The notes: a model not told the origin generated them from the sequence alone. A stretch of DNA of 64,000 bases from Nanobdellota archaeon (GCA_024654505.1 JANLHN010000003.1:167037-231036), one strand, 5' to 3'. Shown: positions 897-63,988, numbered from the stretch's first letter. Numbers and translations are program-made.

Positions 897-1670
897 TTAT
901 CTGTTTCCTTTAACTTTTTGAAAATAGGGACAGATGTTTTGATAGCCGCAGTAATTACATAGTTGGCTAATGCATGCAGGAAATTCTGTTGCGTTCTCTA
1001 TTCTCGCGATTTTAATCATAACTTCTTCTTGCAATTTGTGGAGCTTTTCTTCCGTTGGTTCAGCAATCACTTGTTGGTTGTGAGCCAGCATATTCCAAAC
1101 GAGTTTTATAGAATTGGCTTCTGGAAAATTATTCCTTGCCCAGATAGAATACATTGCAAGTTGTTTGTCATTTTCAATTTCCCATTGTTCTTTCATTTGG
1201 GAACTTGTTTTATGATCTATAATATAATAATTACCTTCAGAATCTTTAGCAAAAAGATCAATCCGAACATGCCATTCATTGCCATCTGGAAGAGTCATCA
1301 TGTCTCTAGTCTCTAGTCCAATAATTTTTAACTTGTCAAATGGTGTGTGTTTGTCATAATAATCTAATAAGAATTTTTCTCCTTTTTTTCTATAATCGTC
1401 TGGAGTCATATATTCTTTTACAATTAAAATGTCGTCGTTGTATTCATTATCCCATAAGTTATTGTAAAATCTTATAGTTTCTTCTTTAGATAGTTTAAAT
1501 AAAGTTTCAATGGTTTTGTAGAGTTTTTCTAGTGTTTGATGAACTAAATTTCCCATAAATCCTTCAATTGTTGTAGGGAAATCTGGTTTTAGCCAGTCTA
1601 TATACTTCAACTTATATTGATATGGGCACTGTTCAAAAGTGCTTATTTTAGAATGGGAATATCTCGCCAT
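897..1670 (-). CDS. PD-(D/E)XK nuclease with C-terminal Fe-S cysteine cluster (Cas4-like / RecB-family exonuclease)
   Basis: N-terminal SKISTFEQCPYQYKLKY carries the first Cys and the RecB-type motif. A QxxxY motif is present (DKQLAMYSIW). IIDHKTS is a D-x-K-like core. The C-terminus has three Cys (C-x5-C-x2-C: CISQLCNYCGYQNICPY). Together with the N-terminal Cys this is the 4-Cys pattern of Cas4/AddB nucleases. Confidence 0.6.
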   Translation of the reverse strand: MARYSHSKISTFEQCPYQYKLKYIDWLKPDFPTTIEGFMGNLVHQTLEKLYKTIETLFKLSKEETIRFYNNLWDNEYNDDILIVKEYMTPDDYRKKGEKFLLDYYDKHTPFDKLKIIGLETRDMMTLPDGNEWHVRIDLFAKDSEGNYYIIDHKTSSQMKEQWEIENDKQLAMYSIWARNNFPEANSIKLVWNMLAHNQQVIAEPTEEKLHKLQEEVMIKIARIENATEFPACISQLCNYCGYQNICPYFQKVKGNR

Positions 1671-2046: not shown

Positions 2047-2164
2047 GCGTGGGTAGTATAAAGTAACAAACAAGTTGCTTCGAGAATACAACCCACAAAT
2101 AAATCGCGTGGGTAGTATAAAGTAACGGCATAGCCGTTTCGAGAATACAACCCCCAAATAAATC
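2047..2164 (+). repeat. Two tandem 59-nt units (2047-2105, 2106-2164). Each unit is a copy of the first 14 nt of tRNA-Gly followed by a hairpin module
   Basis: GCGTGGGTAGTATA occurs at 2047, 2106 and 2165, where 2165 is the real tRNA 5' end. Unit 1 hairpin is AAGTAAC-AAACAA-GTTGCTT. Unit 2 hairpin is AAGTAACGGC-ATA-GCCGTTTC. Both units then share CGAGAATACAACCC(A/C)CAAATAAATC. Confidence 0.8.
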
Positions 2165-2236
2165 GCGTGGGTAGTATAGTGGTTATTATTCGACGTTGCC
2201 AACGTTGGGGCCCGGGTTCGATTCCCGGCCCGCGCA
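2165..2236 (+). tRNA. tRNA-Gly (anticodon GCC)
   Basis: Manual fold. Acceptor GCGTGGG/CCCGCGC (one GU pair), discriminator A. Anticodon stem CGACG/CGTTG, loop TTGCCAA. T-arm CCGGG-TTCGATT-CCCGG. 72 nt with no encoded CCA. Confidence 0.8.
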
Positions 2237-2309
2237 TATTGGGGAATCGAACCCTGTGAGAGATTGGCCTCTGAGAGGTCTGCAACTTGTTGCCGAGGCC
2301 CGCGCATAT
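2227..2309 (+). repeat. Direct repeat of the tRNA-Gly 3' end (GGCCCGCGCATAT at 2227-2239 and 2297-2309), flanking a 57-nt segment that contains an inverted T-loop fragment
   Basis: Exact 13-nt duplication spaced 70 nt. The intervening GGGGAATCGAACCC is the reverse complement of a T-arm. Confidence 0.7.
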
Positions 2310-10743: not shown

Positions 10744-10829
10744 AAATCCCCGGCCGGCTCACAATTGGTGTACTTCTGCTGAAGCAAATCGAAAGTTCGA
10801 TTCCGATATATTAGAATCCCCCCGGCCAG
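10744..10829. repeat. Imperfect direct repeat of the tRNA-Tyr 3' end region (AATCCCCGGCCGG at 10744 and AATCCCCCCGGCCAG at 10814), with an inverted T-loop-like fragment (AAGTTCGATTCCG) between the copies
   Basis: Same architecture as downstream of tRNA-Gly and tRNA-Val. Confidence 0.5.
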
Positions 10830-10887
10830 AATCGAACTGGCACATATCGGGCTACAGCCGAATGTTCTACCATTGAACTACGGAGGG
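10817..10887 (-). tRNA. tRNA-Tyr (anticodon GTA)
   Basis: Reverse-complement fold. Acceptor CCCTCCG/CGGGGGG (one GU pair), discriminator A. D-stem GTTC/GAAC. Anticodon loop CTGTAGC. T-arm GCCAG-TTCGATT-CTGGC. 71 nt. Confidence 0.75.
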
Positions 10888-10945
10888 TTTGTCACCTACG
10901 GAATTCTCATGAAACGGCTATGCCGTTACTTTGAACTACGAAGGG
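10888..10945 (-). repeat. 58-nt unit upstream of tRNA-Tyr. It consists of a copy of the tRNA 5' 15 nt (one mismatch) plus the conserved hairpin module
   Basis: On the minus strand the unit reads CCCTTCGTAGTTCAA + AGTAACGGC-ATA-GCCGTTTC + ATGAGAATTCCGTAGGTGACAAA, then the real tRNA 5' end CCCTCCGTAGTTCAA. The 22-nt core GAAACGGCTATGCCGTTACTT is identical to the one in Gly unit 2. Confidence 0.8.
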
Positions 10946-11021
10946 TTATAATTTAACCTAGAATAGGGGATTTTTAAGGGTTGTGGGTTAGATTATTAAA
11001 CCTACTTCTTCTTTCCTAATT

Positions 11022-19431: not shown

Positions 19432-19556
19432 GAGAATGGCCCCACCAAGAATCTTCTCACAAAATGCATTTCACAATTAATATTTTTCTGTTTGATTGTT
19501 CAAAGCGTTTTGTTCGCCTTGGGCACCCAAGTTCGAGAATGGCCCCACCAAGAATC
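19432..19556. repeat. 22-nt direct repeat GAGAATGGCCCCACCAAGAATC (19432-19453 and 19535-19556). It comprises the last 17 nt of tRNA-Val plus 5 flanking nt, duplicated 103 nt downstream
   Basis: Exact match. The intervening segment carries an inverted copy of the tRNA T-arm 5' side (TCGAACTTGGG) inside the hairpin CTTGGGTGCCCAAG. Confidence 0.75.
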
Positions 19557-19614
19557 GAACTTGGGCATTCTCGGTGTAAACGAGATGTTCTGCCATTAGA
19601 CTATGGGGCCATAG
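19544..19614 (-). tRNA. tRNA-Val (anticodon TAC)
   Basis: Reverse-complement fold. Acceptor GGCCCCA/TGGGGCC, discriminator A. Anticodon stem TCTCG/CGAGA, loop TTTACAC. T-arm CCAAG-TTCGATT-CTTGG. 71 nt. Confidence 0.75.
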
Positions 19615-19664
19615 CTCCGTTGTCTTCATGAAACATCTATGATGTTCCTTTAGACTATGGGGCC
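19615..19664 (-). repeat. 50-nt unit upstream of tRNA-Val: a copy of the tRNA 5' 15 nt plus a variant of the conserved hairpin module
   Basis: The minus strand reads GGCCCCATAGTCTAA + AGGAACATC-ATA-GATGTTTCATGAAGACAACGGAGCTAT, then the real tRNA. Here the hairpin stem is AACATC/GATGTT, replacing AACGGC/GCCGTT while keeping pairing. Confidence 0.8.
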
Positions 19665-19734
19665 GTTTAGAGGAGAACAAATTCTTTGCTTTTAAAACTT
19701 ATGATTGGGGAATAGTGATAACATTTAAATAAGA

Positions 19735-25925: not shown

Positions 25926-27200
25926 TCATACTTTCACACATCACGACATCCACACACAAAACCAGTAACGACATGAGCTTTACCGCCCATCTCAACACTC
26001 CAGAAACTCGTGGATAAGCAAGATACTTTCAAATGGAAACTTTTGAGAGAATCTATGTGCTAGTCGTGACTGTGTTTCTGAAACAAATGCGTCGGAATAT
26101 CTTAGAAATAAGTGTCTGACGTATGCTCTGATGGTGAAATACGTGTCTTAAGTCACTTAGCTTATACAAAGCGCTGGATGTCTCCTTGAGGGAGGGCTTC
26201 CAGAGAAACGGGGTGTTCCTGTAGTGGCTGTTTTTTGTCGCCCTGATGGTCGGGGTGATTCTTTTTATCGGCTGAGACGAAGGCGTCTCGGGAAGGAGTT
26301 CGCGTGATTAGGATGGGCAACGGACATAGGAGTTCGGAGAAGAAGGAGGGGAAGGTGAAGATAGTGAGGACACCTGCTCCCCCTTCTGATGAGGCACTGC
26401 TTCAGGAGCGGCTGCGCCAGATGGATGTGGCTTCCGGGAAGCTGCCCAGGATGGGGCGGAAGAAGGGGAACAACGGCTTCAACGGGGAGTCGAACGGCCA
26501 GCAGCTAGATGACCCGCTCCGTTCGATGATCCTCCCCAACCACCTCTAGAAGGGAGGGGTGATGGGACGGAAGAAGCAGTGCTATGGGAGAGAGGGAGTC
26601 TGTTTGACTCCTAATTGTCCCTACGCCCTGGGTTGTATCCAGATCTGGGGCAGAGACCGACTCCTTAAGAAGAGGGGAGTTGGGGTAGAACAAAGCGTGC
26701 CGAGGGGCTCGGTGCGTTCCAAGGGCCCGCAGGGCAAAGTGTCCCGGGAAAGAAGAATTGGAGGGAGGATAGTAAGTGAGCAGACCGATTTTCTCAACAC
26801 CATCTCAGATGATGGTGGGACTCCCAGAAGTTAGTGGGGGGAGGAAGGTCTCGGTGGACCGCGCCCTGGAAGTCCTGGGGTTGACGGCATCCACCTTCAG
26901 AGACAAGATACAGAGGGAGGAAGGTTTCGACATGGATAACCTCGTTGCTGGGGGGAAGAAGTTCTCTGCGAAGGGGGCGCCTCTGGCTGGGGGGGAATTC
27001 CTCCTCCGGGTCTTCATCGGAGGAAACATCGAGGCCAGAGTTCTCCTGGACCCTGAACGACAGAGGGTACTCTCAACTCAGGAAGTCCAGATGACTAGAG
27101 AGGGGGTAGTGGCCCTGTAAGAGGTCATGGGCTCCTAGACGGGACGATGCTGGGGGTGTGGGCTAGGGAGGAAGTTCTGCCTACACCCCCAGACAGGCTG
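25926..27200. other. GC-rich (~55%) compositional island with sharp boundaries. It contains 3 short overlapping ORFs in different frames and ends in a hairpin GGGGGTGTGGGC...GCCTACACCCCC
   Basis: Visible base-composition shift relative to the ~33% GC flanks. Candidate ORFs are 26304..26549, 26559..26834 and 26776..27120. Confidence 0.6.
26776..27120 (+). CDS. Possible excisionase/MerR-type HTH DNA-binding protein inside the GC-rich island
   Basis: VSVDRALEVLGLTASTFRDKIQREEGF resembles the excisionase-family helix-turn-helix. The reading frame overlaps the upstream ORF, which suggests possible frameshift decay. Confidence 0.3.
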   Translation: MSRPIFSTPSQMMVGLPEVSGGRKVSVDRALEVLGLTASTFRDKIQREEGFDMDNLVAGGKKFSAKGAPLAGGEFLLRVFIGGNIEARVLLDPERQRVLSTQEVQMTREGVVAL

Positions 27201-27446
27201 ATTTTTTTAGTAATAGGGTCAAGAAAGAAAGGAGAATCTCATGAGTAACAATCTTTGGACCACGTTTGTTTTTTTGTTTTTTTGTTTTTTTTTGCCTTTA
27301 TCTATATACTTTAATATATATGTTGAAGAATATAGGTTGAAAATTGTTTTTTGTTTGAGTTTTTGGGGCTGGCCGCCCCGAATAAAGAATTTGAAGTTTG
27401 TTGGAACCACAACAAACTTTATATAATCCTTGAGATAATCTTTGTT

Positions 27447-29897
27447 ATGGGTGATAAATATGTTCGGTGGTTGTCTTCTCTTTCTAAAAAAGACTTAAAC
27501 CTTGCTGGAGGAAAGGGTGCAAACTTGGGAGAGATGTATAATAATAAATTTCCTGTTCCACAAGCATTTGTTGTGACGACTGATGCCTTTTTTTATTTTC
27601 TTAAGGAAACAAAAATCAAGGATGAAATAAGGGCGTTGTTAAACCGAATTGATGTAGATGATTCGGATAAATTGGCAAAGATAGCTGAAGAAATTCGAGA
27701 AACTATCACTAATGCTAAAATGCCAGAAGTTTTAGAAAGAGAAATTATTGAAGCATATGACCATTTTAATGTTGATTTGGATGGTTTAAAGAGTTCTCCA
27801 GGGGCGCTTTCTATTTTGAGGTCTTCGAGAGAACCTGTTTTTGTTTCTGTGAGGTCTTCGGCAACAGCAGAGGATTTGGAGGGAGCAAGTTTTGCAGGAC
27901 AGCAAGAGAGTTTTATTAATGTTCGAGGAAATAAAGAATTAATTGAAAAGGTAAAACGTTGTCTCGCATCTATATTTACTGCTCGGTCTCTATTTTATCG
28001 TAAGAAGAAGGGCTTTGAAGATTTTGTAGGGATTGCAGCTGTCGTTCAGCGAATGGTTAACTCTGAAAAATCTGGTGTTATGTTTTCTAGACATCCTGTA
28101 AAAAATAATGACGAAATTTTAATTGAGGCTGTTTTTGGTCAGGGAGAGGGAATTGTTTCTGGACAAATTAAACCAGACCAACACACAGTTAGTAGGGATT
28201 TTAAGATTCTTGATGAAAAAATATCTGATAAAAAAATTGAAATTATCCGAACCTCTGGAGGACAAACAAAAACTAAAGAGTTAGGACCAGAGAAATCTAA
28301 GGGCCGTGTTTTGAAAACTTATGAGATTAAACAATTAGCAGAGTTTGCAATTAAACTTGAGAACCATTATAAGAAGCCGCAAGATATTGAGTTTGCTATT
28401 GAAAATGGAGAAATATATATTTTACAAACTCGCCCAATGACTGCACTGAAAAAAGATTATAAGGAAATGGAAGAACTTGAAGGTCATCTTTTAACGAGTG
28501 GTTTGGCTGCATCTCCAGGGGTTGCTTCTGGTCCTGTGAGAATTGTTAATTCTATGGAGGATTTGGGAAAGGTTCGTGATGGAGATATTCTAGTTACTAC
28601 AATGACTAATCCTGATATGGTTGTTACTATGCAAAAGGCTGCTGCGATTGTAACTAGTGAGGGAGGTGTTACTGCCCACGCCGCGATTGTGTCAAGAGAA
28701 ATGGGAATTCCTGCCGTCGTCGGAACAAGTGATGCGATGGATGTTTTGACTGATGGAATGGAAGTAACAGTTGATGGTTTTAATGGAAGAGTTTTTGCTG
28801 GAAAAGCTGAAAATAAAAGTGTGAAGATTCTTCCAATAGTGCATACAAAAACCAAAATTAAAGTTTTGGTCGATTTACCTCAATTTGCAGAGAGGGCAGC
28901 AAAGACCGAAGCTGATGGTGTTGGTTTGGTGAGGCTTGAAGGCTTAATTGCTAGCTCAGGTAAACATCCCTTGGCCTATGAAGGAGAAAACAAATTAGAA
29001 GAATATCAGGAAATGTTGAAAAAAGGGCTTCTTAAAATTGCAGAGGTCTTTATCGGAAAACCTATTTGGGTTAGAACATCAGATATACGAAGTGATGAGT
29101 ACTCAAATCTTGAAGGAGCACCTAAAGAAATTGAAAAAAATCCTATGCTTGGAGATCATGGAATTCATTTTTCGTTGAAACATCCAGAAATTTTAAAAGC
29201 CGAACTTAAGGCAATTAATGAACTTACGAAAAAAGGACATAAATTTGGTGTAATGTTTCCTCAGATAATCTCTGTCGAGGAAGTGAGGGCGGCACGAAAA
29301 ATATTTAATGAAGTTGGAATGGATAAAGTGGCTTTTGGTTTGATGATTGAAACTCCCGCTGCAACAATTTTAATTAAAGACCTTTGTGAAGAAGGAATTG
29401 ATTTTATTTCTTTTGGAACAAATGACTTGACGCAATATACTCTTGCTATTGATAGGGGAAATGAACATGTTCAAGATATTTATAATGAAATGAATTGGGC
29501 TGTTTTAAAACAAATTGCTAGGGTAATTAGAGAATGTAAAAAACAAAAGGTTGAAACTTCTATCTGTGGGCAAGCCGGTTCAAATAAGGAGATGGTTGAA
29601 TTTTTAGTTAAGCAGGGGATTGATTCCATTTCTGTTAATGCAGATGTTGCGAGAGAAATTTCTGAATTAGTTAGAGATTTAGAGGGTGGGACAAAGGTTG
29701 AAGAAAAAGTTGTTGAGAAGAGTGAAGAAAAAAAGGTTGAAGAAAAGAATATTCTTGATGAAGAAATTGTTGGTGAAAGAGAGATTGAGGAAAAAAATGA
29801 TTTAGGAACCGAAGAGGAATTAGTTGAGGCTGAGGAAGTTGAGCATCACCAAGGGCATTCAGATATTCATGTTGCTAAAGAAGACATTTTTGATTAA
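27447..29897 (+). CDS. ppsA: Phosphoenolpyruvate synthase (pyruvate, water dikinase)
   Basis: N-terminal KYVRWLSSLSKKDLNLAGGKGANLGEM. Phospho-His domain GGVTAHAAIVSREMGIPAVVG. PEP-utilising C-terminal TIM barrel including NDLTQYTLAIDRGN. The start was trimmed to MGDKYV at 27447. The C-terminus has an acidic low-complexity extension. Confidence 0.9.
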   Translation: MGDKYVRWLSSLSKKDLNLAGGKGANLGEMYNNKFPVPQAFVVTTDAFFYFLKETKIKDEIRALLNRIDVDDSDKLAKIAEEIRETITNAKMPEVLEREIIEAYDHFNVDLDGLKSSPGALSILRSSREPVFVSVRSSATAEDLEGASFAGQQESFINVRGNKELIEKVKRCLASIFTARSLFYRKKKGFEDFVGIAAVVQRMVNSEKSGVMFSRHPVKNNDEILIEAVFGQGEGIVSGQIKPDQHTVSRDFKILDEKISDKKIEIIRTSGGQTKTKELGPEKSKGRVLKTYEIKQLAEFAIKLENHYKKPQDIEFAIENGEIYILQTRPMTALKKDYKEMEELEGHLLTSGLAASPGVASGPVRIVNSMEDLGKVRDGDILVTTMTNPDMVVTMQKAAAIVTSEGGVTAHAAIVSREMGIPAVVGTSDAMDVLTDGMEVTVDGFNGRVFAGKAENKSVKILPIVHTKTKIKVLVDLPQFAERAAKTEADGVGLVRLEGLIASSGKHPLAYEGENKLEEYQEMLKKGLLKIAEVFIGKPIWVRTSDIRSDEYSNLEGAPKEIEKNPMLGDHGIHFSLKHPEILKAELKAINELTKKGHKFGVMFPQIISVEEVRAARKIFNEVGMDKVAFGLMIETPAATILIKDLCEEGIDFISFGTNDLTQYTLAIDRGNEHVQDIYNEMNWAVLKQIARVIRECKKQKVETSICGQAGSNKEMVEFLVKQGIDSISVNADVAREISELVRDLEGGTKVEEKVVEKSEEKKVEEKNILDEEIVGEREIEEKNDLGTEEELVEAEEVEHHQGHSDIHVAKEDIFD

Positions 29898-43652: not shown

Positions 43653-43699
43653 ACAAACCTTTTAAAGTAACATCAAAGATGTTTCATGTTTAAGGTTTT

Positions 43700-45443: not shown

Positions 45444-48017
45444 TCATTCGCTCTCTTTGATTTCTTCTACAATATCTTCCTCTGTTGGAACTCTTGTTAA
45501 GTCGCTTACAGAATCTTTATCTTTGAGTTTGATTACTCTAACTCCTTGCGTTGCTCTCCCCATAATTCTTAAAGATTCTACAGGTGTTCTTATTACGATT
45601 CCCTTAACTGTTGAAACAATTATGTTGTCTTCATTCCTCACAGATTTTGATGTAACAATATCTCCAGTTTTATCAGTTACTTTCATATTAATAACTCCTT
45701 TTCCTGCCCGACCAGTTAGTCTATAATCTTCTATCTCGCTTCTTTTACCATAACCTTTTTTTGTTATTGTTAAAATTGAAAACTTTTGTCTTTCTTCTGT
45801 AGGAATTATTTCTAAAGATACTACACTGTCCCCTTTTCCGAGTTTTATTCCTGTTACACCATAAGAAGACCGCCCCATAGACCTTATGTCTTTGCTATTA
45901 AACCTAATTGCTTGGCCTTTTTTTGTTACTAGAAGTATCTCTTGTCCGTCGGTTAATGGTTTTACTTCTATTAGAGTGTCTTGAGTTTCCATAACTTTTA
46001 TTGCTTTAATTCCCCCCTTTCGAGGATTATTAAATTGGCTTAGCTCAATCTTTTTGACTATTCCTTTTTCAGTTGCCATCATGAGATAATCATCAAATTT
46101 CTTTACTGCTAAAACAGAAGTTACTTTTTCATCCTTTAATTCTAATAAATTGACCACTGCTTTCCCTTTGCTGCTCTTTGCAGAAGATGGGATTTTATAG
46201 GCCTTTAACCAATGAACTTTTCCCTTGTCAGTAAAGAAAAGCATGTAGTCGTGAGTATTACAAGTTAATAATTCTTTGACGAAATCGTCTTCGGTTAAAT
46301 CCGAACCAATCACTCCCTTTCCACCTCTCTTCTGTTCTTTGTACTGTTGCAAATCTATTCTTTTGATATATCCTTTATCGGTTATTGTTACTATAACATC
46401 TTTTTTATCAACCAAATCTTTTTCTTCTAGCTCCTTAACCACTCCAATAATCTTTGTTTTTCTATTATCCCCGTAGGTGCTTTTAAGTTCTTCTAATTCT
46501 TTCTTAATAATCTTAAGAATCTCTTTTTCGTCTCCAAGAATTTTCTTCAGTTTCATAATTAAATCTCTTAAATCTTTTTCTTCTTTCTTTAGTTTATCAA
46601 ATTCTAGAGAAGTTATTTGGTGTAACTTCATTTCTAAGATTGCTTCTGTTTGCTTGTCTGAGAGGTTATATTTTGCTTTAAGGCTTTGTGCTGCTTCTAT
46701 CTTTCCTTTTGCTGCCCTAATTAATTTAACAACGGCATCAATATTACTTTGGGCAATGAGGAGGCCTTCGACAATGTGTAATCTCTTTTCTGCCTTATCT
46801 AAATCAAATTCCTTTGTCTTTCTGACAACAACCCTTCGGTGATTCACATAAACTTTTGCGTATTCTCTAAGTGTGAGGAGCTTGGGGATTCCACCAACTA
46901 AAGCTAACATGTTTGCATTGAAGGTCGTTCTGAGGTTAGTGTATTTGTAGATTCTATTTAGGGTGAATTTTGGTTCTGCATCTTTTCTTAGTTCAATAAC
47001 TATTCTAACTTTCCCTTTAGAAGATTCGTCTCTTAAATCTGATAAGTCTGGTAACTTTTTATCCCTTGCCAAAAGGGCAATTTGTTCAACGAGATTTGCT
47101 TTATTTACTTGGTAAGGGATTTCGGTGATTATTATTTTTGTTTTGTCTGCTTTTCTTTTTGGTTCTTCTATTACTGTTTTTCCATCAATTACTAATCTAG
47201 CCCTTCCTTCTGTATAAAGATTTTTTATTTCTCCACTTACTGTTCCCCCGGTAGGAAAATCAGGCGCCTTAATTGCTTCAATAAGTTCTTTATCTTCACA
47301 TTCTGGGTTATCTATGTAAGTTAAAATAGCGTCGCATGTATTGTTTAAATTATGAGGTGGGATGTTTGTTGCCATTCCTACTGCAATACCACTTGCACCA
47401 TTGAGGAATAAATTTGGAAGCTTTCCAGGCATTACTGTTGGTTCAAGTAAAGTATTGTCATAATTTTGAATCATTGGGACGGTTTTTTTATCAATATCTT
47501 CTAAGATTGCATCACTAATCTTTTCCATCTTTGCCTCTGTATATCTTGAGGCTGCTGCAGAATCTCCATCCATAGAGCCAAAGTTTCCCTGACCAATGAC
47601 TAAAGGGTACCTTAAAGAGAAATCCTGGGCCATACGGACCATAGCATCATAGATTGCCATATCTCCATGGGGATGATATTTACCCATAGTGTCTCCAACA
47701 ATTCTACCAGATTTTTTTGTCTGTTTGTTGTGTTGAAGACCCATCTCATTCATTGCCCAAAGGATTCTTCGATGAACTGGCTTCAAACCATCTTCAGCTG
47801 CAGGAAGTGCTCTTGCAACAATAACCGACATGGCATAATTCAGATATGCTTCCCTCATTTCTGTAGAAATCTCTGCATCAATTAGTTCCTTGGCTTGAAC
47901 ATTCTTTTTCATCTCTTCCCTTCTACTTTCAAATTCTTCAGATTCTTTTACTGCATTATCCATTCCGTCTATTTCTTTGACGTTTTCATCTTCATCTATA
48001 TAGTCTGCTGCGTTCAT
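45444..48017 (-). CDS. gyrA: DNA gyrase subunit A
   Basis: N-terminal [29 protein letters not shown]. Active-site region [11 protein letters not shown]-terminal beta-pinwheel repeats. 857 aa. Confidence 0.95.
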
Positions 48018-48247
48018 TTTTTCTTCCTCGCTTTATTTTTGGCCTTCATTTGTTTGACCTTCTTTTTTAGCTCGCTTTCAGTTACTTCAAGTATGGGGAA
48101 GGCCATTGCCACCAGATTACAATCTAGGCATTGTTGTCTTGGAATTATTCCAAATATGTTCCCCAATCCATGGACATATTTCACATTAAAAGATTGGCAT
48201 TTAGGACAGAACATTACTCTAATCTTTTTGTCTTTTTTGTTTGCCAT
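48014..48247 (-). CDS. Small zinc-ribbon protein with Lys-rich tail
   Basis: CPKCQSF...CLDCN, C-terminus [17 protein letters not shown]. Overlaps the gyrA start by 4 nt. Confidence 0.45.
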
Positions 48248-48504
48248 TATATTCTCTTAAACCTTTTAACTTTAATTCCTGGAATAATCTCTTTATCTCC
48301 ACAAAAGTCATCCAAGGATCTTGTCCAAATAGTCCCTTCTGGAAAATCTACCGTAGGGTAAAGTTGTTTGTAAACCACTATTCTTTGGGTTGGATTGTCA
48401 CAATCTCTAGCCATAGCAACTACTTCATAAATTCTTTTACTACCTCTAAAGTGAACATATTTTTCTCCTGCCATTGGTTCTTCCATTATAACTCCACCCC
48501 CCAT
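48247..48504 (-). CDS. DUF1653-like small protein
   Basis: KYVHFRGSKRIYEVV...RIVVYKQLY...PEGTIWTRSLDDF resembles the DUF1653 pattern. Confidence 0.4.
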   Translation of the reverse strand: MGGGVIMEEPMAGEKYVHFRGSKRIYEVVAMARDCDNPTQRIVVYKQLYPTVDFPEGTIWTRSLDDFCGDKEIIPGIKVKRFKRI

Positions 48505-48835
48505 TCTTCTTTATCAAAATTGAAAACATAGTTTTCTTTTGAGCAGTTATATTCTGAACATCCTCTTGAAGGATTGGTATAACCACCCTTACTAATACAA
48601 ATTCCATCACTTAATTTAAAGTTGTCATTTGGACAATATAGTCTTTCTCTTTCAACACATTCACAATTATCAGACAACCAGCTTTCTAATTTTTCTTGTT
48701 CGGATAATTCCTTTGGTTTTGTTATGGGGGAATCTTTTGGAAGAATGCTGATTATAACAATTCCTAGAATAATCAAAATTCCTATTATTAAAATGATGTT
48801 GTTGTTTTTCTTTTTGTTCTTATTTTTCTTTGCCA

Positions 48836-48836
<1 letters not shown>
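48486..48836 (-). CDS. Membrane-anchored Cys-rich small protein
   Basis: Lys/Asn-rich N-terminus, then TM segment IILIIGILIILGIVIISIL, then a Cys-rich ectodomain (8 Cys). Confidence 0.4.
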
Positions 48837-50743
<1,907 letters not shown>

Positions 50744-53526: not shown

Positions 53527-54570
53527 ATGGTGACAGAAAAAGAGAAAACACTTCTTGATTTTATCAAATTGGTGTCTCCAGGAAAACCTTTGAGAGATGT
53601 TATTGATGATCTAATTCGATCCGGTCTTGGAGCGATGATAATTTTTGATGCTCCTACACTCCATAGCGAGAATATTTTAGAGGGTGGTTTTAGAATTAAT
53701 AGTAGATTTACTTCCCAAAAACTTTTTGAATTATGTAAGATGGATGGTGCAATAATTGTTTCGCCGGATTTGAAAAGAATTCTTTTTGCAAACGCCTTAA
53801 TGAACCCAAATGCTTCACTTTATACTGCTGAAACTGGGACGAGGCATAAGGCTGCTGAGAGGACGGCAAAACAGGCAAATACATTTGTTATTGCGGTCTC
53901 TGAAAGAAAGAAAAAAGTTACACTTTATCATGGAGAATCGAGATATTTTCTTAAAGAAACAGAAGAAATTTTGAGAGATTTAAGTTCTACTCTTCAGGTT
54001 CTTGAGAAACAGAGAGAGCTTCTTGATGCAAATATCACAGACCTTAATGTTTTGGAAATGTCTGATTTAGTTTCGGTTAGTGATGTTTGTAAGGTGATTC
54101 AAAGAGCAGAAATGATTCTCAAAATATCTGATTCTGTGAAGATAAATTTTACTGAACTTGGACGGGAAGGGAATGTTATGTATATGAGGTATAAAGAACT
54201 ATTAAAAGGAGTCTGGGATATTGAAAAAGAAATTCTTCGTGATTATGCTCACATCTCATTAAAGAAGTCTAGGACTATCCTAGCCAACCTAACTTTAGAA
54301 GGGTTATTAGATACTGACTCTATTGCCAGATTAATAATAGAAAAATCTCCAGAGAGCAGTCTTTCTCCTAGAGGTTTTAGGTTTTTATCCCACCTCTCCC
54401 TTTCAGAAAAAGAAGTTTCCCCAATAGTAAAGAAATTTGGAAATTTGAAAGCTCTTTTTGATAGCGACTCTGTTGGTCTTGAACCAATCCTAAAAAATAG
54501 GGCGAGTACAACTTATGAGGAGATTAGAAGTCTTCGAGAGCAAGTTTTAAGCGGGAAGGTTGTTAGTTAA
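53527..54570 (+). CDS. dacZ: Diadenylate cyclase (c-di-AMP synthase), archaeal DacZ-type
   Basis: DAC-domain motifs MDGAIIVS (DGA) and ETGTRHKAAERTA (GTRHRAA). N-terminal DAC domain plus a C-terminal helical extension. 347 aa. Confidence 0.8.
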   Translation: MVTEKEKTLLDFIKLVSPGKPLRDVIDDLIRSGLGAMIIFDAPTLHSENILEGGFRINSRFTSQKLFELCKMDGAIIVSPDLKRILFANALMNPNASLYTAETGTRHKAAERTAKQANTFVIAVSERKKKVTLYHGESRYFLKETEEILRDLSSTLQVLEKQRELLDANITDLNVLEMSDLVSVSDVCKVIQRAEMILKISDSVKINFTELGREGNVMYMRYKELLKGVWDIEKEILRDYAHISLKKSRTILANLTLEGLLDTDSIARLIIEKSPESSLSPRGFRFLSHLSLSEKEVSPIVKKFGNLKALFDSDSVGLEPILKNRASTTYEEIRSLREQVLSGKVVS

Positions 54571-62163: not shown

Positions 62164-62235
62164 GTTAGATACAGAGGATTAGTGTATATAAAATTAATGA
62201 AAAGGTTAAAAAACCTAGTCTTGGTTTGTAAAATA

Positions 62236-62307
62236 AGGACCCGTAGTTTAATGGATAGAATACCAGGTTTCGGCCCTGTTGATGGAGGTTCGATTCCTCC
62301 CGGGTTC
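62236..62307 (+). tRNA. tRNA-Arg (anticodon TCG)
   Basis: Acceptor GGACCCG/CGGGTTC (one GU pair), discriminator G. Anticodon stem CCAGG/CCTG(T), loop TTTCGGC. T-arm GGAGG-TTCGATT-CCTCC. It lacks the flanking repeat units present at the other three tRNAs. Confidence 0.75.
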
Positions 62308-62357
62308 GTCGAAAAACATATATAAAGTAAAAAAGATAAGTTATTCTTGAGGAGATT

Positions 62358-63467
62358 ATGGATAAAAAATTCTTGGCTACGGCAGCAACATTGGCAGGAA
62401 CCATTATTGGTGCGGGAATTCTTGGACTGCCTTATGTTTTTGCTCAATCTGGATTTCTTATTGGACTTTTCTGGTTGATCTGTCTTGGAGCAATTATGCT
62501 TTTTGTTAATTTGTGTTTAGGAGAAGTTACTCTTCGAACAAGAGGGAAACATCAACTTCCTGGTTATGCAGAGAAATATCTTGGAAAGTTCGCCAAAAAA
62601 GTGATGTTCTTTGCCCTAATCTTTGGTATATATTCTGCTCTTCTCGCTTATTTAGTTGGTGAAGGACAAAGTCTTTCTCAACTTCTTCCAGGGAATATAA
62701 ATCCCTTGTTCCTTGGTTTTGGTTTTTGGTTGGTTATGACTTTGTTGCTTCGGGAAGGATTAAAAGGTCTTAAAAAAGTTGAAACTTATGGTGTTCTTGC
62801 AATTATTTTAATTATTGTGGGGGCTTTTGTTTATTTCTTTTCGCAAATAATTCCCTCTAACCTCCTTGTGGTCAATTTTCCTGATTTTGCCGCACCATTT
62901 GGAATACTTTTATTTGCCCTTATGGGATTTACTTCTATTCCAGAATTAAGAAAGGAAATTTATGGAGAAGAGAAACTTTTTAAGAAAGCAATAATTTTGG
63001 GTAGTCTAATTCCTATTATTCTTTATGTTCTATTTGTGATTACATTCATGGGGGTTCTGGGGAATAGTGTAGAAGAGGTTTCCACCCTTTCTTTTGGTCC
63101 TTTAATGGTTATTTTGGGAGTGTTTACTATGTTCACTTCCTATTTCGTCCTGTCTTACTCTTTGAGGGATACTTTCAAATATGATATTAAATTATCTAAG
63201 AGGGTGAGATTTTTTTTAATTTCTATTGTCCCTTTGATATTATATTTTCTTGTCAATTATTTTCAGATTGTGGGTTTTTCCAAGATTTTAGGTATTGGAG
63301 GTGTAGTTTCTGGGGGTTTAATGGGAATTTTGATTTTATTAATCAATAAAAAGTCTAAAAAGATGGGGAAAAGAAAGCCCGAGATTAAAATTCCCCTTAA
63401 TTGGTTATCTATAATTCTTCTTATTATTGTGTTTACTGCAGGAGTCTTTTTAGAGTTTTTTCACTAA
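62358..63467 (+). CDS. Amino-acid permease (aromatic amino acid / HAAAP-like transporter family)
   Basis: N-terminal ATLAGTIIGAGILGLPYVFAQSGF is typical of Tyr/Trp-specific permease-family transporters. About 11 TM segments. Confidence 0.65.
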   Translation: MDKKFLATAATLAGTIIGAGILGLPYVFAQSGFLIGLFWLICLGAIMLFVNLCLGEVTLRTRGKHQLPGYAEKYLGKFAKKVMFFALIFGIYSALLAYLVGEGQSLSQLLPGNINPLFLGFGFWLVMTLLLREGLKGLKKVETYGVLAIILIIVGAFVYFFSQIIPSNLLVVNFPDFAAPFGILLFALMGFTSIPELRKEIYGEEKLFKKAIILGSLIPIILYVLFVITFMGVLGNSVEEVSTLSFGPLMVILGVFTMFTSYFVLSYSLRDTFKYDIKLSKRVRFFLISIVPLILYFLVNYFQIVGFSKILGIGGVVSGGLMGILILLINKKSKKMGKRKPEIKIPLNWLSIILLIIVFTAGVFLEFFH

Positions 63468-63548
63468 AAACTTCTTTCAATAAGTTTTTAAAGTAAGTTC
63501 AAAGAACTTTCATAGAAAAACTTCTTTCAATAAGTTTTTAAACCCATT
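63466..63548. repeat. Two tandem copies of the AAAAACTTCTTTCAATAAGTTTTTAAA hairpin repeat downstream of the permease gene
   Basis: Copies start at 63466 and 63518. Same family as 42283. Confidence 0.6.
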
Positions 63549-63628: not shown

Positions 63629-63988
63629 ATGAAGTTATATGTAGGAAATCTACCATGGAGTATTGATGATGCTGGTTTGAAGGAACTTTTTGCGGCTTAT
63701 GGAGTCGAAGAAGCAAATCTTATCACAGATAAGTACTCTCACAGGTCTAAAGGTTTTGGTTTTGTAACAATTGCAGATGACGCAGAAGCTAAGAAGGCTA
63801 TGTCTGAAATGCATGAGAAAGAAGTTGAAGGTCGAAAATTGACAGTCAGTGAAGCTAAACCAATGGTTGCACGAGACTCACCAAGAGGAAATTTTAATAG
63901 ATCTGATTCTGGTTCAAACAAAGCACCTATTGCAAATTCGGAAGAGATTGAAGAAGATTTCGAAGATTCAATGGATGACGAAGATTAA
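63629..63988 (+). CDS. RRM-domain RNA-binding protein with acidic C-terminal tail
   Basis: RNP2 LYVGNL. RNP1 KGFGFVTI. Spacing is typical of a canonical RRM. C-terminus EEIEEDFEDSMDDED. Confidence 0.75.
   Translation: MKLYVGNLPWSIDDAGLKELFAAYGVEEANLITDKYSHRSKGFGFVTIADDAEAKKAMSEMHEKEVEGRKLTVSEAKPMVARDSPRGNFNRSDSGSNKAPIANSEEIEEDFEDSMDDED

Follow-up and report, generated by a model that had tools for sequence, protein, structure and literature searches.

Why should the 3' end of a tRNA recur a short distance behind its own gene? The 64-kb stretch of DNA analysed here (the window) contains four tRNA genes, Gly, Tyr, Val and Arg, identified with ARAGORN and Rfam, and behind the first three the tRNA 3' end is repeated 70–103 nt downstream, with 57–85 nt of hairpin-rich DNA enclosed by the two copies. 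The initial annotation read these repeats as attL/attR scars of integrase-mediated insertion. The explanation that we favor, with a little less than even confidence, is that they are the edges of small hairpin-rich modules that inserted duplicatively at tRNA ends, are co-transcribed with the tRNA, and are removed by RNase Z. Modules of this kind are frequently found at AT-rich archaeal loci similar to the window's, where they measure about 46–160 nt; they are apparently an undescribed family of tRNA-appended inserts and not the debris of a lost virus.

The window encodes a thermosome, archaeal ribosomal proteins, aIF2-gamma, aminoacyl-tRNA synthetases, Kae1 and deoxyhypusine synthase, its GC content is about 35%, and its GTPase is 60–75% identical to proteins from Pacearchaeota and Nanoarchaeota metagenome-assembled genomes (MAGs). 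It also has genes for an RRM-domain protein (63629–63988), DNA gyrase A and B (45444–50740) and a DisA-type diadenylate cyclase (53527–54570), all of which are probably uncommon in archaea. A local GC peak of 0.47 (26001–28000; about 0.35 elsewhere in the window) contains an open reading frame without a Pfam match (26776–27120), and no Rfam family reaches its gathering score in this interval. The tRNA-Gly(GCC) gene lies at 2165..2236 on the plus strand (ARAGORN; 59.2 bits in Rfam), tRNA-Tyr(GTA) at 10817..10887 and tRNA-Val(TAC) at 19539..19611, both on the minus strand; these three genes are intact and have extra modules at both ends. The fourth gene, tRNA-Arg (62237–62308, plus strand), served as an internal control. 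About 500 nt from tRNA-Gly there is a gene for a Cas4-like PD-(D/E)XK nuclease (897–1670, minus strand); neither Cas1 nor a CRISPR array was seen within the window.

The direct repeats that had been described behind the three genes were all found, that of Tyr as a gapped copy. At Gly, GGCCCGCGCATAT (13 nt, exact) occurs at 2227–2239 and again at 2297–2309; at Val, an exact repeat of 22 nt occurs at 19432–19453 and 19535–19556 and overshoots the mature 3' end by 5 extra nt; at Tyr, the repeat is about 14 nt long, AATCCCCCCGGCCAG (10815–10829) corresponding to AAATCCCCGGCCGG (10744–10757), and the latter, the outer copy, is short of two C (two G in the tRNA sense). The inverted T-loop fragment that had been noticed between the repeats proved to be an exact inversion of each tRNA's own T arm, starting 3–10 nt past the gene: 13 nt at Gly (2214–2226/2242–2254), 10 nt at Tyr (10794–10803/10829–10838) and 11 nt at Val (19526–19536/19555–19565). 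It is not the whole insert, which also has a direct T-loop copy and hairpins. Significance was judged from 2000 shuffles of each 150-nt flank. The direct repeats of Gly and Val and all three inverted repeats had p<0.0005, and the longest exact direct stretch of Tyr (8 nt) had p = 0.012; the tRNA-Arg flank had neither a direct (p = 1.0) nor an inverted repeat (p = 0.5).

Read in the tRNA sense, the three 3' units of the window share one order: tRNA, 3–10 nt of filler, the inverted T-arm segment (I), a centre of 2–4 nt, a partial direct copy of the T-loop (D2), one or two hairpins (the cargo) and the second 3'-end copy. The 3' part of the tRNA is present as direct, inverted and direct copies, and the extra hairpins are lodged in the outer copy, between the T-loop and the 3' strand of the T-stem. 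In the Gly unit (plus strand) the inner repeat copy comprises the end of the T-stem 3' strand, the acceptor 3' strand, the discriminator and TAT (2227..2239). It is followed by I (GGGAATCGAACCC, 2242..2254), by AGAGATTGG (2259..2267), which is probably a decayed D2 as it aligns with TTCGATTTG of orthologous tRNA-Gly units (alignment A2), by the cargo hairpins P2 (GGCCTC TGA GAGGTC) and P3 (GCAAC TT GTTGC) at 2266..2293 (also alignment A2), and by the outer copy (2297..2309), after which there is a run of six T (2313–2318).

The Tyr and Val units lie on the minus strand. That of Tyr opens with a palindrome, P1 (10786..10803), made of GAATCGAACT (I, 10794–10803) and TTCGATTT (D2, 10786–10793); I, centre and D2 read GGAATCGAA CT TTCGATT. 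A short cargo, consisting of the hairpin CTTC AGCA GAAG and a stretch ending in AATTGTGAGCC, and the decayed outer copy complete the unit (10744..10785). A tRNA-Tyr unit from a metagenome (L127) has P1 with the same CT centre, and its TGCGAGCC/GG junction matches the end of the window Tyr cargo, TGTGAGCC/GG. In the Val unit, P1 (19512..19536) consists of TCGAACTTGGG (I, 19526–19536), TG and CCCAAGGCGAAC (D2, 19512–19523), I being an inversion that takes in the 5' strand of the T-stem and half of the T-loop. The Val cargo (19454..19511) is a long irregular hairpin (ACAAAACGCTTTGAAC ... TTGTGAAATGCATTTTGTGAGAA) that fits a covarying consensus (alignment A1, see below); the outer copy of the 22-nt repeat occupies 19432..19453. 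In the minimum-free-energy fold of the whole transcript of the Gly locus, the outermost 5' and 3' copies pair; the corresponding fold for Tyr is not significant (z = −1.7) and we therefore claim no long-range processing stem.

Is this arrangement peculiar to the window? One scan of metagenomes with the pattern GTTCGATTC-N12-32-GAATCGAA-N1-8-TTCGA gave at least 120 matches, a sample which was picked for intact I and D2 and so is no gauge of their conservation. At least 78 of the matches are at tRNA 3' ends and represent at least 58 distinct loci, at least 50 of them with a GC content below 0.46. Several loci are archaeal by their Rfam matches (archaeal rRNA, RNase P RNA and SRP RNA), and from their composition and shared motifs all the AT-rich loci probably belong to DPANN archaea. 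DPANN archaea have tiny genomes. At least 50 AT-rich loci have a common layout: an intact tRNA comes first, then 0–16 nt of A/T filler and I (9–13 nt), usually with D2 as its pairing partner; one or two conserved hairpins lead up to the second copy, which covers the 3' strands of T-stem and acceptor stem and the discriminator and often has a T-run behind it. Among the matches listed there are at least 44 units of 46–160 nt with a repeat of 7 nt or more close by, and at least 10 isotypes (Ala, Cys, Gly, His, Leu, Phe, Ser, Trp, Tyr and Val). Repeat length varies from 8 to 22 nt. Some loci have tandem arrays of identical units (L205, L231, L232) or partial second units (L145, L190, L219), and outer copies are found at every stage of decay (for instance in the window Tyr unit and in L159, L208 and L214). 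In four loci (L132, L178, L203, L236) a tRNA-Ala unit is located within the 16S–23S spacer.

Bystander tRNAs in these loci, which the pattern had not selected, mostly do without the anti-T-arm segment (about 17 of 19); the exceptions are a tRNA-Leu (L164) and a tRNA-Thr (L170), the latter with a unit that lacks D2 and has the loop TTCAAAT and a hairpin capped by UUCG. At L152 (5824–5965) the 3' half of a tRNA-Val, from anticodon loop to 3' end, recurs as a 42-nt copy 53 nt downstream; a 31-nt insertion interrupts the T-loop of this copy and there is no anti-T-arm segment. The duplication looks more like a classical att site. The matches also include at least eight that are GC-rich, among them a minimal version without cargo at human-gut tRNA-Phe genes. 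In five such loci (L129, L130, L153, L206, L212; GC about 0.56) the order is tRNA-Phe, filler, GGAATCGAA-GCAA-TTCGATTCCGAC, a variant acceptor strand and CCA; this direct-inverted-direct version apparently belongs to organisms outside the DPANN.

The cargo hairpins fall into a few families, each of which, with one exception, is common to several genomes and several tRNA species. Family (a) has the form ...ACTTCAAT-(GNRA)-ATTGAAGT, CCGCGGARC-N-GYTCTGCG. Family (b), GAGCAAAACGC...GATGCAAATTGYGAG, is found at Ser, Gly, His, Phe and the window Val, and in shortened form in the window Tyr unit. Family (c), GCCC..GGGT AT GCAAAC..GTTTGC CGA, is the exception, being confined to tRNA-Gly(GCC); its members are the window Gly unit and the tRNA-Gly units of L152, L158, L213 and L159. 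Family (d) reads ACCC..GGGC.. Family (b) forms an irregular hairpin of 16 pairs with a conserved tandem G.A loop (RNAalifold), and 10 of the 16 pairs show compensatory double changes. Paired cells make up 93%, against 77% after shuffling and 27–56% in controls with slid partners; none of 500 shuffles reached the observed covariation score, and there are 9 G.U cells against 3 A.C cells. By these compensatory changes, which exceed both kinds of control, family (b) is a conserved structured RNA, the window Val unit included. Support for family (c) is weaker, there being five sequences; all five have an invariant G.U pair in P2, and AU and GC pairs are swapped in P3. For family (a), whose hairpin lengths are too variable to align (MAFFT/RNAalifold), P2 and P3 have the support of single-sequence folds.

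Strand asymmetry points the same way. In 44 units among the matches listed the sense fold is stabler than the antisense fold (−23.3 vs −20.7 kcal/mol, p = 0.004), and GNRA tetraloops, again among the matches listed, number eight in the sense and one in the antisense strand, with 1.25 expected from shuffles; UUCG loops and conserved G.U pairs occur as well. Covariation, asymmetry and tetraloop counts together argue for a constraint on the cargo that acts on the sense-strand RNA or, at the least, on a single-strand hairpin. It has no Rfam match up to E = 1, and inspection of the unit sequences revealed no C/D or H/ACA boxes. Segment I behaves differently from the cargo. It is complementary to its own tRNA over 9–12 nt in the metagenome units listed and over 10–13 nt in the window, and among the matches listed it enters the tRNA-specific T-stem by at least 3 nt in 14% of units vs 1.6% expected, which argues that its template was the adjacent tRNA and that it is no constant component of the cargo. 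Runs of four or more T occur between tRNA and unit in 11 of 42 units and follow the outer copy in 22 (among the matches listed), so that most units should be transcribed along with the tRNA.

Loci of relatives, retrieved via homologs of the window GTPase, show how readily units come and go. The orthologous tRNA-Val genes of L044 and L045 have no 3' unit, and their 5' unit is decayed in L044 and present in L045; the orthologous tRNA-Tyr of L045 has a unit at neither end. In L041, tRNA-Tyr is followed by a 3' unit built to the same plan (102 nt) and then by a further, decayed 3'-end copy, and a tRNA-Gln (L014) and a tRNA-Asp (L031) have 5' units only. Presence and absence among orthologous tRNAs imply gain and loss on short evolutionary scales, and the relatives with only one of the two units imply that the 3' and 5' ends behave independently. 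In tRNA-Gly orthologs the outer copy shares the lineage-specific acceptor variant of its gene (GGACC, GGTCC or GGCCC) and the cargo has diverged; this tracking suggests either selection on the outer copy or its repeated re-creation. Units on different tRNAs of one genome differ. The same tRNA often has the same cargo family across genomes (family (c) at Gly; the Tyr units of the window and L127), which fits long vertical inheritance better than recent mobility.

The 5' ends of the same three genes carry units of a comparable kind. Two tandem 59-nt units precede tRNA-Gly (2047..2164, plus strand), each made of tRNA positions 1–14, a conserved hairpin, an inverted copy of positions 3–13 and a spacer; single units on the minus strand precede tRNA-Tyr (10888..10948) and tRNA-Val (19612..19665). 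The general order is tRNA positions 1–14 (14–15 nt), the hairpin AAAG-TAAC-NN-CAWAG-NN-GTTTC, ATGA, inverted positions 3–13, a spacer of 5–13 nt and the tRNA. The hairpin of Gly unit B is identical to that of Tyr over 22 nt. In a genome scan with the hairpin pattern (AAAGTAAC-NN-CAWAG-NN-GTTTC), the NN positions were complementary in all 12 archaeal MAG matches, and the bacterial matches were mostly due to chance. Four loci (L154, L118, L150, L162) have 5' units with other cargo on other tRNAs. The hairpin motif also occurs before two protein genes of the window, those for aIF2-gamma (43664–43685) and the RRM protein (63463–63542), and at both promoters it caps a longer palindrome specific to the locus; the hairpin at 63490 is flanked on both sides by a 27-nt directly repeated sequence, TATA box included (63463–63542). 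That direct-inverted-direct logic is seen at both tRNA ends and at a site outside tRNA genes points to a general process of duplicative insertion. A BHB intron was also considered for the 5' units and rejected, since equal sequence before both splice sites requires a palindromic 4-mer, which Tyr and Val do not have.

How could such units arise? In our proposal a structured-RNA gene module would insert duplicatively at a tRNA end, the outer repeat being the target duplication, and the inverted and direct T-loop copies would be templated on the target during insertion or repair. The module could then be inherited with the tRNA, amplified to tandem arrays via slippage between repeats, decayed or lost. 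It would be transcribed as a 3' trailer, as the position of the putative terminator past the outer repeat suggests, and RNase Z would cut at the inner copy. Against insertion stands the variable length of the repeat (8–22 nt), unlike the fixed-length duplications made by transposases; moreover, no enzyme able to move the modules was identified among the roughly 55 window ORFs, and no population was seen to have both an empty and a filled site. Integron attC sites and REP/IS200-IS605-derived elements resemble the units in their size (about 60–140 nt), variable sequence, conserved hairpin, fixed mismatches and many copies per genome. We know of no target duplication or inversion by these elements, nor of any tied to tRNA ends, and the analogy would also call for a cognate recombinase, none of which was found in the window.

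We think it somewhat doubtful, though worth stating, that these are undescribed DPANN tRNA-appended RNA modules, combining a T-arm antisense, a spare acceptor strand and hairpins, that serve either as agents of tRNA maturation or quality control or as mobile elements that copy and invert their target. A new RNA-structured mobile element would show in concrete terms how tRNA genes may become fragmented (split or intron-bearing): its target-copying insertion would act on essential genes without destroying them, and would leave behind tRNA pieces such as have been postulated at the origin of these genes. Were the modules functional, they would constitute a new cis-element of archaeal tRNA maturation. 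The design recurs in dozens of relatives that are uncultured, at some loci within rRNA operons. Either way, duplicated tRNA ends can mislead both tRNA annotation and the att-based delimiting of integrated elements.

The main rival to insertion is that the unit is a functional pre-tRNA 3' trailer or tRNA-linked sRNA, its repeats being kept because they must match the tRNA. The anti-T-arm segment and spare acceptor strand might act in cis or in trans on the folding or processing of the tRNA; or else RNase Z might release a three-hairpin RNA with a job of its own, as in the dicistronic tRNA-sRNA genes of Nanoarchaeum equitans. In that organism, tRNA-sRNA precursors are cut by RNase Z, and it was argued that the small RNA genes are mobile and take part in gene fragmentation (Randau 2012, PMC3491384). 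The likeness is considerable: a DPANN-type host and a structured RNA gene directly behind the tRNA, with the RNase Z cut, predicted for the present units, as its 5' end. However, the N. equitans sRNAs have C/D and C'/D' boxes, which are unrecognized in the present units, and a duplicated tRNA 3' end and an anti-T-arm segment are not reported there (PMC3491384).

RNA-like constraint on the cargo (the covariation, the excess of G.U over A.C, the tandem G.A loop, the GNRA and UUCG loops) favors this rival, as do the perfection of I in the window units next to a D2 that has decayed in Gly and Val, the fidelity with which the outer copy follows acceptor-stem variants in tRNA-Gly orthologs, the apparent position of the unit inside the transcription unit, as T-run placement suggests, and its persistence beside tRNA-Ala in 16S–23S spacers. 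But the units are dispensable, being absent from orthologous tRNAs of close relatives and, among the matches listed, from most bystander tRNAs; many outer copies are truncated or mutated; the repeat overshoots the mature 3' end, by 5 nt at Val, where pairing has no need of it; tandem copies are identical; and neither recognizable guide-RNA boxes nor an Rfam match was seen. Weakened by dispensability, decay and overshoot, and backed by RNA-like constraint and tRNA tracking, a functional trailer seems to us unlikely, although it is the alternative to be taken most seriously.

A second possibility dispenses with any dedicated mobile element: the units would be scars of replication or repair, formed by template switching at the hairpin-prone T arm, with cargo acquired from other units through T-loop microhomology. 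This would account for the direct-inverted-direct layout at both tRNA ends, for the perfect palindromes with centres of 1–2 nt, which make poor RNA hairpins (GCAAC TT GTTGC; GAATCGAA C TTCGATT), for the cargo-less version behind the GC-rich human-gut tRNA-Phe genes, and for the 3'-half copy behind the L152 tRNA-Val. Scars alone leave unexplained the conserved, covarying cargo on unrelated tRNAs in different genomes, as well as the strand asymmetry and the constant position of the cargo, from T-loop nt 59/60 to nt 61 of the outer copy; we regard such an origin as quite improbable.

What, then, of the att scars? According to the initial annotation, an element inserted by an integrase had been lost from between the repeats, and viruses or plasmids that integrated at tRNA 3' ends and were later deleted to less than 100 bp would indeed leave the textbook signature of integration, direct repeats that match the 3' portion of the target tRNA exactly. 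The repeats do duplicate the tRNA 3' end and do enclose inserted DNA, and this much of the reading holds; the repeat of the L152 tRNA-Val, which extends from the anticodon loop to the 3' end, even resembles a typical att core. There is also the tRNA-Thr locus of Caldiarchaeum, where a tRNA fragment adjoins a 1.8-kb insertion that encodes a recombinase and where the tRNA gains BHB introns (Sugahara 2012, PMC3293823). As here, the fragment lies beside an intact copy, and it was read there as a step in tRNA gene disruption; the units analysed here differ in having neither a recombinase nor a BHB motif. Integrase-made att duplications such as that of PYG1 in Pyrococcus yayanosii (PMC9897764) likewise leave an intact tRNA with part of its 3' end repeated downstream in direct orientation, the repeat ending at or just past the tRNA 3' end, and repeated insertion at one site is possible. 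In Thermococcales, however, 44-bp repeats surround elements of 9–23 kb (PMC9897764), compared with repeats of 8–22 nt and units of about 46–160 nt here, and the present units are non-coding, have no integrase nearby and always combine an inversion of the tRNA's own T arm with conserved covarying hairpins.

No trace of a lost large element was found. A second tRNA-end copy kilobases away is lacking at the three window units and at 50 AT-rich loci among the matches listed, and no longer element bounded by the same cores turned up at these loci. The recommended search for an integrase gene gave none in the 64-kb window: Pfam scans of its roughly 55 ORFs revealed no integrase, transposase or reverse transcriptase. 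Among 2.9 million viral contigs there was no match to the Val 22-mer, nor did the 5' hairpin motif match any viral contig; a loose pattern (T-loop followed by inverted T-loop) had 71 matches in the viral contigs, almost all due to chance and in coding DNA. Uniformly small units with a common architecture, common cargo and a target-templated inversion are not expected of independent provirus deletions. Two features are not predicted by an att scar: the enclosed DNA belongs to conserved covarying hairpin families common to different genomes and different tRNAs, and the inverted T-arm piece is constant in layout and templated on each tRNA's own T arm. We therefore consider classical att remnants very unlikely; the other option in the initial annotation, a tiny non-autonomous element, is viable.

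That the units are non-canonical introns, with the archaeal splicing endonuclease joining the gene body to the outer copy, is extremely improbable and this idea is largely refuted: the anti-T-arm segment could serve as an exon-binding sequence, the YGAR before the outer copy can pair with the T-loop TTCG, and other archaea do have T-loop introns at 59/60, but a strict hBHBh' search that did recover canonical 37/38 introns (L143, L162, L164, L177, L209) found no consistent motif from tRNA to outer copy in 47 units among the matches listed, the best register would give a 6-nt T-loop, and the inner tRNA is already complete. Further candidates were rejected. Split or permuted tRNA genes do not agree with intact tRNAs scoring 59–64 bits against the Rfam tRNA model. 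A box C/D or H/ACA guide sRNA would have boxes and Rfam matches, neither of which was seen, and the anti-T-loop segment has no D box at N+5; the same distance requirement eliminates a C/D guide for Cm56, for which the inverted segment would be the antisense to the T-loop. A MITE or transposase insertion is at odds with a repeat of 8–22 nt that is not fixed and with element ends that are not inverted repeats of each other.

Promoter positions were read from the sequence. A TATA-like box (GGTTAAAAAACC, of the CTTTAAAAAC type) is located 25–26 nt ahead of the +1 of tRNA-Arg (62204–62237). At Gly, Tyr and Val, the TATA-like box is about 25 nt before the extra upstream copy of the first 14 nt of the tRNA; the Gly box (about 2014–2028) precedes the first 5' unit by about 26 nt. 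The spacing at tRNA-Arg suggests that tRNA transcription may be near-leaderless, as in N. equitans, though RNase P RNA is present in related loci. Loss of RNase P, with the outer 5' copy as the mature end, was rejected because RNase P RNA genes adjoin tRNA-Phe in L151 and L210. In both loci the RNase P RNA gene is directly upstream of a unit-bearing tRNA-Phe (2882–3257 in L151, 578–959 in L210), and that of L210 scores best against the bacterial class A model, at a value below the gathering threshold.
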